From assembly GCF_055900595.2 (NCBI RefSeq), contig NZ_CM148325.1: DNA of 64,000 bases, one strand, 5' to 3'. The notes beneath the pieces are model-generated. The model saw nothing but the letters and a program-made list of their open reading frames with translations, was not told the origin of the DNA and ran no database searches. Position numbers and translations under genes: made by a program. How positions within the stretch are numbered: position 1 is the first letter of the stretch; every line of letters begins with the position of its first letter. Below, in pieces: positions 30,561-30,594 of the stretch.

Positions 30561-30594
30561 TAAAAAGCGCCATCTTACGATGGCGCGGCTGGAA

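Follow-up and report, generated by a model that had tools for sequence, protein, structure and literature searches.

The unoccupied IS609 insertion site between ydcO and ydcL in a 64-kb stretch of the Escherichia coli chromosome

The ydcO-ydcL spacer and the surrounding window

The 64-kb stretch of Escherichia coli DNA that was analyzed (referred to as the window) carries ydcO and ydcL as convergent genes (Table 1). The spacer between them was measured at 34 bp with no insertion sequence (IS) inside it, in agreement with the first-pass annotation, which had described a gap of about 35 bp. The two gene names are those given by PGAP in a genome that is 100% identical over window positions 29300-31300, and the neighbors of the pair in the window are genes for SutR-like, RlhA-like, TehB, and TehA proteins. 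The longest open reading frame through ydcO begins at a GTG codon at 29331, and the product of 29331-30560 was found to match the BenE family model TIGR00843 (7.4e-216); the frame closes with a native TAA stop codon at 30558-30560. On the opposite strand, the ydcL stop codon occupies 30595-30597, and the PF11769 domain was found in all YdcL homologues. Two other open reading frames that reach into the spacer were rejected as genes, including: (i) 30310-30573 on the minus strand, which is antisense inside ydcO; and (ii) 30580-30828 on the plus strand, which is antisense inside ydcL. Both are unannotated in the identical genome. In some E. coli, as in GCA_000193915.2 (locus 4001-4567), YdcL is shortened to 188 aa (83% identity in a local alignment), and its gene adjoins the same 34-bp empty spacer.

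Table 1. Features of the ydcO-ydcL junction, with coordinates in the window unless another sequence is named
Feature	Coordinates	Strand	Description	Basis
ydcO	29388..30560	+	BenE-family transporter, 390 aa	PGAP in identical genome, TIGR00843
ydcL	30595..31263	-	DUF3313 lipoprotein, 222 aa	ORF list, PGAP, PF11769
ydcO-ydcL spacer	30561..30594	.	34 bp between convergent genes	ORF ends
Hairpin GCGCCATC-GTAA-GATGGCGC then TTTTT	30567..30586	-	Predicted terminator	Terminator scan and folding
TTTAT (plus strand: ATAAA)	30560..30564	-	Intact pentanucleotide, directly 5′ of the IS609 left end when occupied	
K-12 IS609 insertion point, empty here	30559..30560	.	Inside ydcO stop codon, TA/A	blastn break
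TATCGGTTTCTGTCAG	30544..30559	-	In K-12, the 16 nt directly 3′ of the IS609 right end	
IS200C-occupied spacer	30560-30566; NZ_OZ121091.1 locus 1560-2275		IS200C in the same spacer	Example genome

When read on the minus strand, the spacer has the arrangement GCGCCATC-GTAA-GATGGCGC-TTTTTAT. A terminator scan placed a stem of 8 bp (6 of them G-C), a loop of 4 nt, and a TTTTT run 8 nt past the ydcL stop codon, and the hairpin was calculated to fold with a dG of -16.2 kcal/mol and a z-score of -4.75, with 0 of 200 shuffled sequences folding as well. The GC-rich stem-loop and the U-run downstream of the stop codon are the sequence features of an intrinsic (Rho-independent) terminator, from which we infer that hairpin and T-tail most likely serve as the terminator of ydcL. 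The plus-strand form of the hairpin lies 3′ of the ydcO stop codon and is without a T-tail; it may, by prediction, also halt read-through from ydcO. A scan of the window with Rfam gave no match in or near the spacer.

The first-pass annotation had further described the window as free of recognizable IS or transposase sequences. This description is supported by annotation transfer from NZ_CP098223.1 and by negative searches, and for the window as a whole its basis is that transfer together with direct searches for IS of three types. Four blocks of 99.94-99.98% identity align the window collinearly with NZ_CP098223.1; the only gaps are segments of 705 bp and 1443 bp that the window lacks, and no window-specific insertions were found. 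The only transposase features annotated by PGAP in the corresponding stretch of NZ_CP098223.1 both fall in these window-absent segments: an IS200-family tnpA lies in the ydcH-rimL interval and an IS150 in the hokB-trg interval. When IS609, InsQ, and YncK were searched against all 64 kb of the window (blastn with word size 7, and tblastn), only chance-level matches were returned, the best with an E-value of 0.09.

The two sites at which NZ_CP098223.1 carries an IS were located in the window. The 705-bp IS200-family element is missing from 34812-34817 (rimL-ydcH), where an A-run lies directly 5′ of a GC-rich hairpin (CTGTTAAAAAAGCCGCCTGGCTGGCGGCTT), a context like that of the IS200C site in the ydcO-ydcL spacer. 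The 1443-bp IS150 is missing from 41567-41569 (hokB/sokB-trg); the alignment blocks overlap by 3 bp at these positions, consistent with a 3-bp target duplication in NZ_CP098223.1, and the insertion point falls within an Rfam match to the sok antitoxin RNA (41494-41645, 111.5 bits, hokB/sokB locus). The sok match and a match to the RydC small RNA (42205-42268, 90.5 bits) both scored above the gathering threshold.

Other features of the window were recorded at a distance from the junction. At about 26223, 444 bp are missing relative to K-12, corresponding to hicA and the 5′ part of hicB, and PGAP annotates the remnant in NZ_CP098223.1 as a hicB pseudogene without its N-terminus; thus, the HicAB toxin-antitoxin pair has been destroyed in this lineage. 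Positions of about 1-9000 correspond to a cluster of type VI secretion Vgr, DcrB-like, and RHS-repeat toxin genes, as annotated in the collinear relative (23295-33001), and the relative's annotation of this cluster includes orphan RHS fragments, a "putative toxin," and a SUKH-4 immunity gene. By BLAST, an internal repeat of 119 bp with 85% identity was detected between window positions 184-301 and 1067-1184. Finally, the gene for the substrate-binding protein of the ABC transporter ydcSTUV, ydcS (about 23100-24250), carries an annotated frameshift in NZ_CP098223.1, the 99.9%-identical relative.

The empty site compared with the IS609-occupied allele of K-12

The absence of IS609 was judged by comparison with K-12 rather than by a chance calculation. 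In NC_000913.3 an "insertion sequence:IS609" is annotated at 1503161-1504908, between ydcL (b1431) and ydcO (b1433), in the gene order tehA, tehB, ydcL, IS609, ydcO, sutR, rlhA. The element contains yncK (a tnpA pseudogene) and insQ/tnpB (b1432), with the latter annotated in the K-12 RefSeq record as a "putative RNA-guided DNA endonuclease." The K-12 interval (1502457-1506080) shares with the window its flanking genes, their convergent orientation, the hairpin spacer, and the TTTAT motif, and differs in the hairpin loop, which is TAAC in K-12 versus TTAC in the window, and in a 1748-bp IS609 between the bases that match 30559 and 30560, where the window has none. By blastn, the two collinear blocks of window and K-12 meet directly at this point, the gap in K-12 is exactly the 1748-bp IS, and the flanks of the window site are 95.8-96.8% identical to K-12. 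Annotation and alignment therefore bear out the statement in the first-pass annotation that K-12 carries an IS609 (insQ) copy here, and the alignment with the K-12 interval did not reveal an equally short K-12 junction.

The alignment defines the junction directly to the base. Since the IS ends and the flanks have no bases in common at the K-12 junctions, the boundaries of IS609 can be placed without ambiguity, and no target-site duplication is present; occupied and empty alleles differ by exactly the IS, with no duplicated bases, and no IS609 end, tnpA, or tnpB sequence was left at the window site. Across the site, the minus strand of the window reads ...GCGCTTTTTAT/TATCGG..., with the slash marking the point of insertion. 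In K-12 the ydcO frame continues as TAT TGA, in which the new TGA stop is supplied by the IS end. The split of the ydcO stop codon therefore adds one C-terminal Tyr to the K-12 protein, such that YdcO ends in ...ADRNR in the window (390 aa) and in ...ADRNRY in K-12 (391 aa).

As an IS200/IS605-family element, IS609 would be expected to encode a Y1 (HUH) transposase, TnpA, together with TnpB, and to have structured ends, not terminal inverted repeats. The tnpA of IS609 copies is named "IS200/IS605 family transposase" by PGAP. To the insertion at the ydcL site of K-12 we compared three further IS609 copies, each of 1748 bp, located at gltX/yfeD, inside a TetR gene, and inside a DUF3251 gene. At four of these four independent loci the sequence TTTAT/CCGGTGCGCC... 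was observed at the left end, with unrelated right flanks. From its recurrence at these sites, TTTAT was identified as the transposon-adjacent motif of IS609. The same motif is intact at the empty site of the window, where it forms the last five bases of the hairpin T-tail. This arrangement is that of the family, whose members integrate 3′ of a short motif, do not duplicate the target, and are excised without a scar (PMC10055086). The empty target sites of IS608, ISDra2, and ISGst (the "donor joint") likewise have a motif directly 5′ of the left end and no target-site duplication, and as with these the empty ydcO-ydcL site consists of the motif and the right flank; it differs in being a natural allele in a window without IS609 and not an observed excision product.

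By analogy with the TnpB model of Meers et al. (PMC10055086), TTTAT followed by TATCGGTTTCTGTCAG would be the donor joint that an active K-12 InsQ and its guide RNA would be expected to recognize. No experimental study of E. coli InsQ was retrieved when the literature was searched for InsQ together with TnpB. The K-12 IS609 tnpA carries an in-frame stop, an internal stop is also present in the tnpA of the three other copies, and 0 transpositions of the K-12 element were recorded in mutation-accumulation lines (PMC5009759).

Distribution of empty and occupied alleles in E. coli

The junction was surveyed in 5,426 complete E. coli genomes, 5,416 of which match the locus at all, and each state was counted directly with a query of its own. 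A strictly empty junction, scored with a 200-bp query centered on the junction and at least 80% covered, was present in 2,043 genomes; the ydcL-IS609 left-end junction (300-bp query) was present in 3,267 and the ydcO-IS200C junction (240-bp query) in 98. The three counts add up to 5,408 of these 5,416 genomes, and IS609 occupies the ydcO-ydcL site in about 60% of sequenced E. coli. A looser 2-kb query scored 2,138 genomes as contiguous, a number higher than 2,043 because its match is not interrupted by an insertion, such as that of IS200C, of no more than about 1.5 kb.

All occupied genomes in the sample break at one and the same base, between positions 1260 and 1261 of the 2-kb query and 100 and 101 of the 200-bp query, and the IS609 copies at the site were 98.3-100% identical to that of K-12, which fits one old, vertically inherited insertion. 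The occupied genomes in the sample include K-12, C600, the B derivatives C43(DE3) and B-RalR, W, O111:H8, and O113:H21; those with an empty site include O157:H7, Nissle 1917, UTI89, IHE3034, APEC O2:K1:H5, and 042. Based on strain names, for this sample, we take the occupied strains to belong to phylogroups A and B1 and the empty strains to E, B2, and D. The junctions of 042, O157:H7, UTI89, IHE3034, and Nissle 1917 are uninterrupted like that of the window and 96-100% identical over 200 bp, and the window differs from the other empty-junction E. coli by point differences only. The haplotype of the window is rare, with only 8 of the 5,426 genomes at least 99% identical over 2 kb (29300-31300, megablast). 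These 8 are about 100% identical, the next closest being 042-like empty genomes at about 98%, and over 10.8 kb (25909-36720) the window is 96.4% identical to K-12. Judging from this haplotype, the source strain is from an uncommon E. coli lineage.

IS200C, an element of about 709 bp with tnpA only, lies in its 98 genomes within the A-run that adjoins the hairpin, at a distance of 3-5 bp from the IS609 insertion point. In NZ_OZ121091.1, for example, this other IS200/IS605-family element lies in the spacer, whereas the window has no insertion. The junctions in the listed IS200C genomes are identical and 12-29 places in each match the junction query, so these genomes probably represent one lineage. 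The 34-bp spacer has been struck independently by two IS200/IS605-family elements, IS609 and IS200C, within 5 bp.

Origin and meaning of the empty junction

The window carries the empty allele of an annotated IS609 presence/absence polymorphism, which is ordinary and already known. The reading that we favor, at a probability of about 0.9, is that its ydcO-ydcL junction is native and was never interrupted, IS609 having been gained in an A/B1 ancestor and never received by the lineage of the window. The T-tail of the putative ydcL terminator hairpin, which ends in the TTTAT motif after which IS609 inserts, would have offered the target; one copy would have entered, by single-strand "peel-and-paste" transposition, in an ancestor shared by the lineages of K-12, B, W, O111, and O113 (phylogroups A and B1), leaving no duplication and splitting the ydcO stop codon. 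The inserted copy would then have decayed, its tnpA now being a pseudogene, and the lineage of the window would never have obtained it.

The polarity we infer from distribution within E. coli: the empty state is most likely ancestral and the insertion derived, because the occupied strains sampled are A/B1 and the empty ones E, B2, and D. Within the species, phylogroups A and B1, together with C, constitute a derived clade, and a single insertion in the A/B1 ancestor is therefore the most parsimonious account. Beyond E. coli, one genus-level outgroup, Citrobacter koseri, was found to have no IS609 between ydcL and ydcO. It does not show the 34-bp junction, as genes for an EamA-family transporter and an AraC-family regulator intervene (locus 4669-6656), and the direct ydcL-ydcO junction may be specific to Escherichia. 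The remaining synteny is kept in C. koseri (opgD-ydcH-rimL-ydcK-tehAB-ydcL ... ydcO-sutR-rlhA). A search of genome contigs with the empty-junction 20-mer AAYCGNTAATAAAAAGCGCC returned 7 matches, all to unrelated bacteria (Chloroflexi, Micavibrio, and others) and attributable to chance, and clustering of YdcL homologues at 90% did not separate Escherichia albertii and Escherichia fergusonii from E. coli. A candidate outgroup with an 83%-identical YdcL was rejected: the locus belongs to E. coli, its ydcL is shortened, and its 34-bp spacer is likewise empty.

Since excision in the IS200/IS605 family is scarless (PMC10055086), the sequence of an empty site alone cannot tell a junction that was never interrupted from one that was precisely restored. 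Secondary loss, in which the ancestor had IS609 here and TnpA excised it precisely, draws on this property, on the tnpA genes listed at this locus in many occupied genomes under PGAP names that carry no pseudogene flag, some of which might be active, and on the presence of IS609 at other loci in some genomes that do not have the ydcL-IS609 junction. We consider it very improbable, given that the 64-kb window holds no IS609 sequence, that the flanking haplotype differs by about 4% from the occupied lineages and has its nearest matches among other empty genomes, that the empty strains in the sample belong to B2, D, and E and those with IS609 to A and B1, and that the tnpA of the three other IS609 copies examined has an internal stop.

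An empty allele could also have been imported by homologous recombination in place of an occupied one. The identity of 96.4% to K-12 over 10.8 kb represents more divergence than expected for core genes, and a mosaic region could explain the small number of close relatives here (8 of 5,426 genomes at 99% or above); over its full 64 kb the window is nevertheless collinear with and 99.9% identical to NZ_CP098223.1, with no breakpoint seen near the junction, and import needs an extra event with no observation to support it, which makes it an extremely improbable origin. Loss of an IS609 copy through collapse or omission while the source genome was assembled has a negligible probability: draft assemblies can lose repeats, and nothing specific points to such a loss in this case, but 2,043 complete genomes, among them the 8 with about 100% identity over 2 kb, show the identical junction, and both the ydcO stop codon and the hairpin are intact there.

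Insertion into an A/B1 ancestor, with the window's lineage left empty, accordingly remains our preferred reading. A broader and rather doubtful idea is that the spacer acts as a recurrent landing pad for IS200/IS605 elements, in which the terminator hairpin would provide a structured single strand and the T-tail the TTTAT motif. To this idea belong the independent entry of IS609 and IS200C within 5 bp and the similar setting, an A-run beside a hairpin, of the rimL-ydcH IS200 in NZ_CP098223.1. If InsQ and its guide RNA were active in A/B1 strains, the empty allele of the window, TTTAT plus TATCGGTTTCTGTCAG, would be their exact predicted cleavage target; if this were true, the IS609 allele would act as a drive against empty alleles entering by recombination.

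The window represents a non-K-12, IS-poor stretch of the E. coli chromosome. Its comparison with K-12 fixes the insertion motif of IS609 as TTTAT and identifies the extra C-terminal residue of K-12 YdcO as IS-derived. Furthermore, the presence or absence of IS609 at this site provides a clean binary marker that separates the sampled K-12, B, W, O111, and O113 strains from those of O157:H7 and the B2 and D groups.
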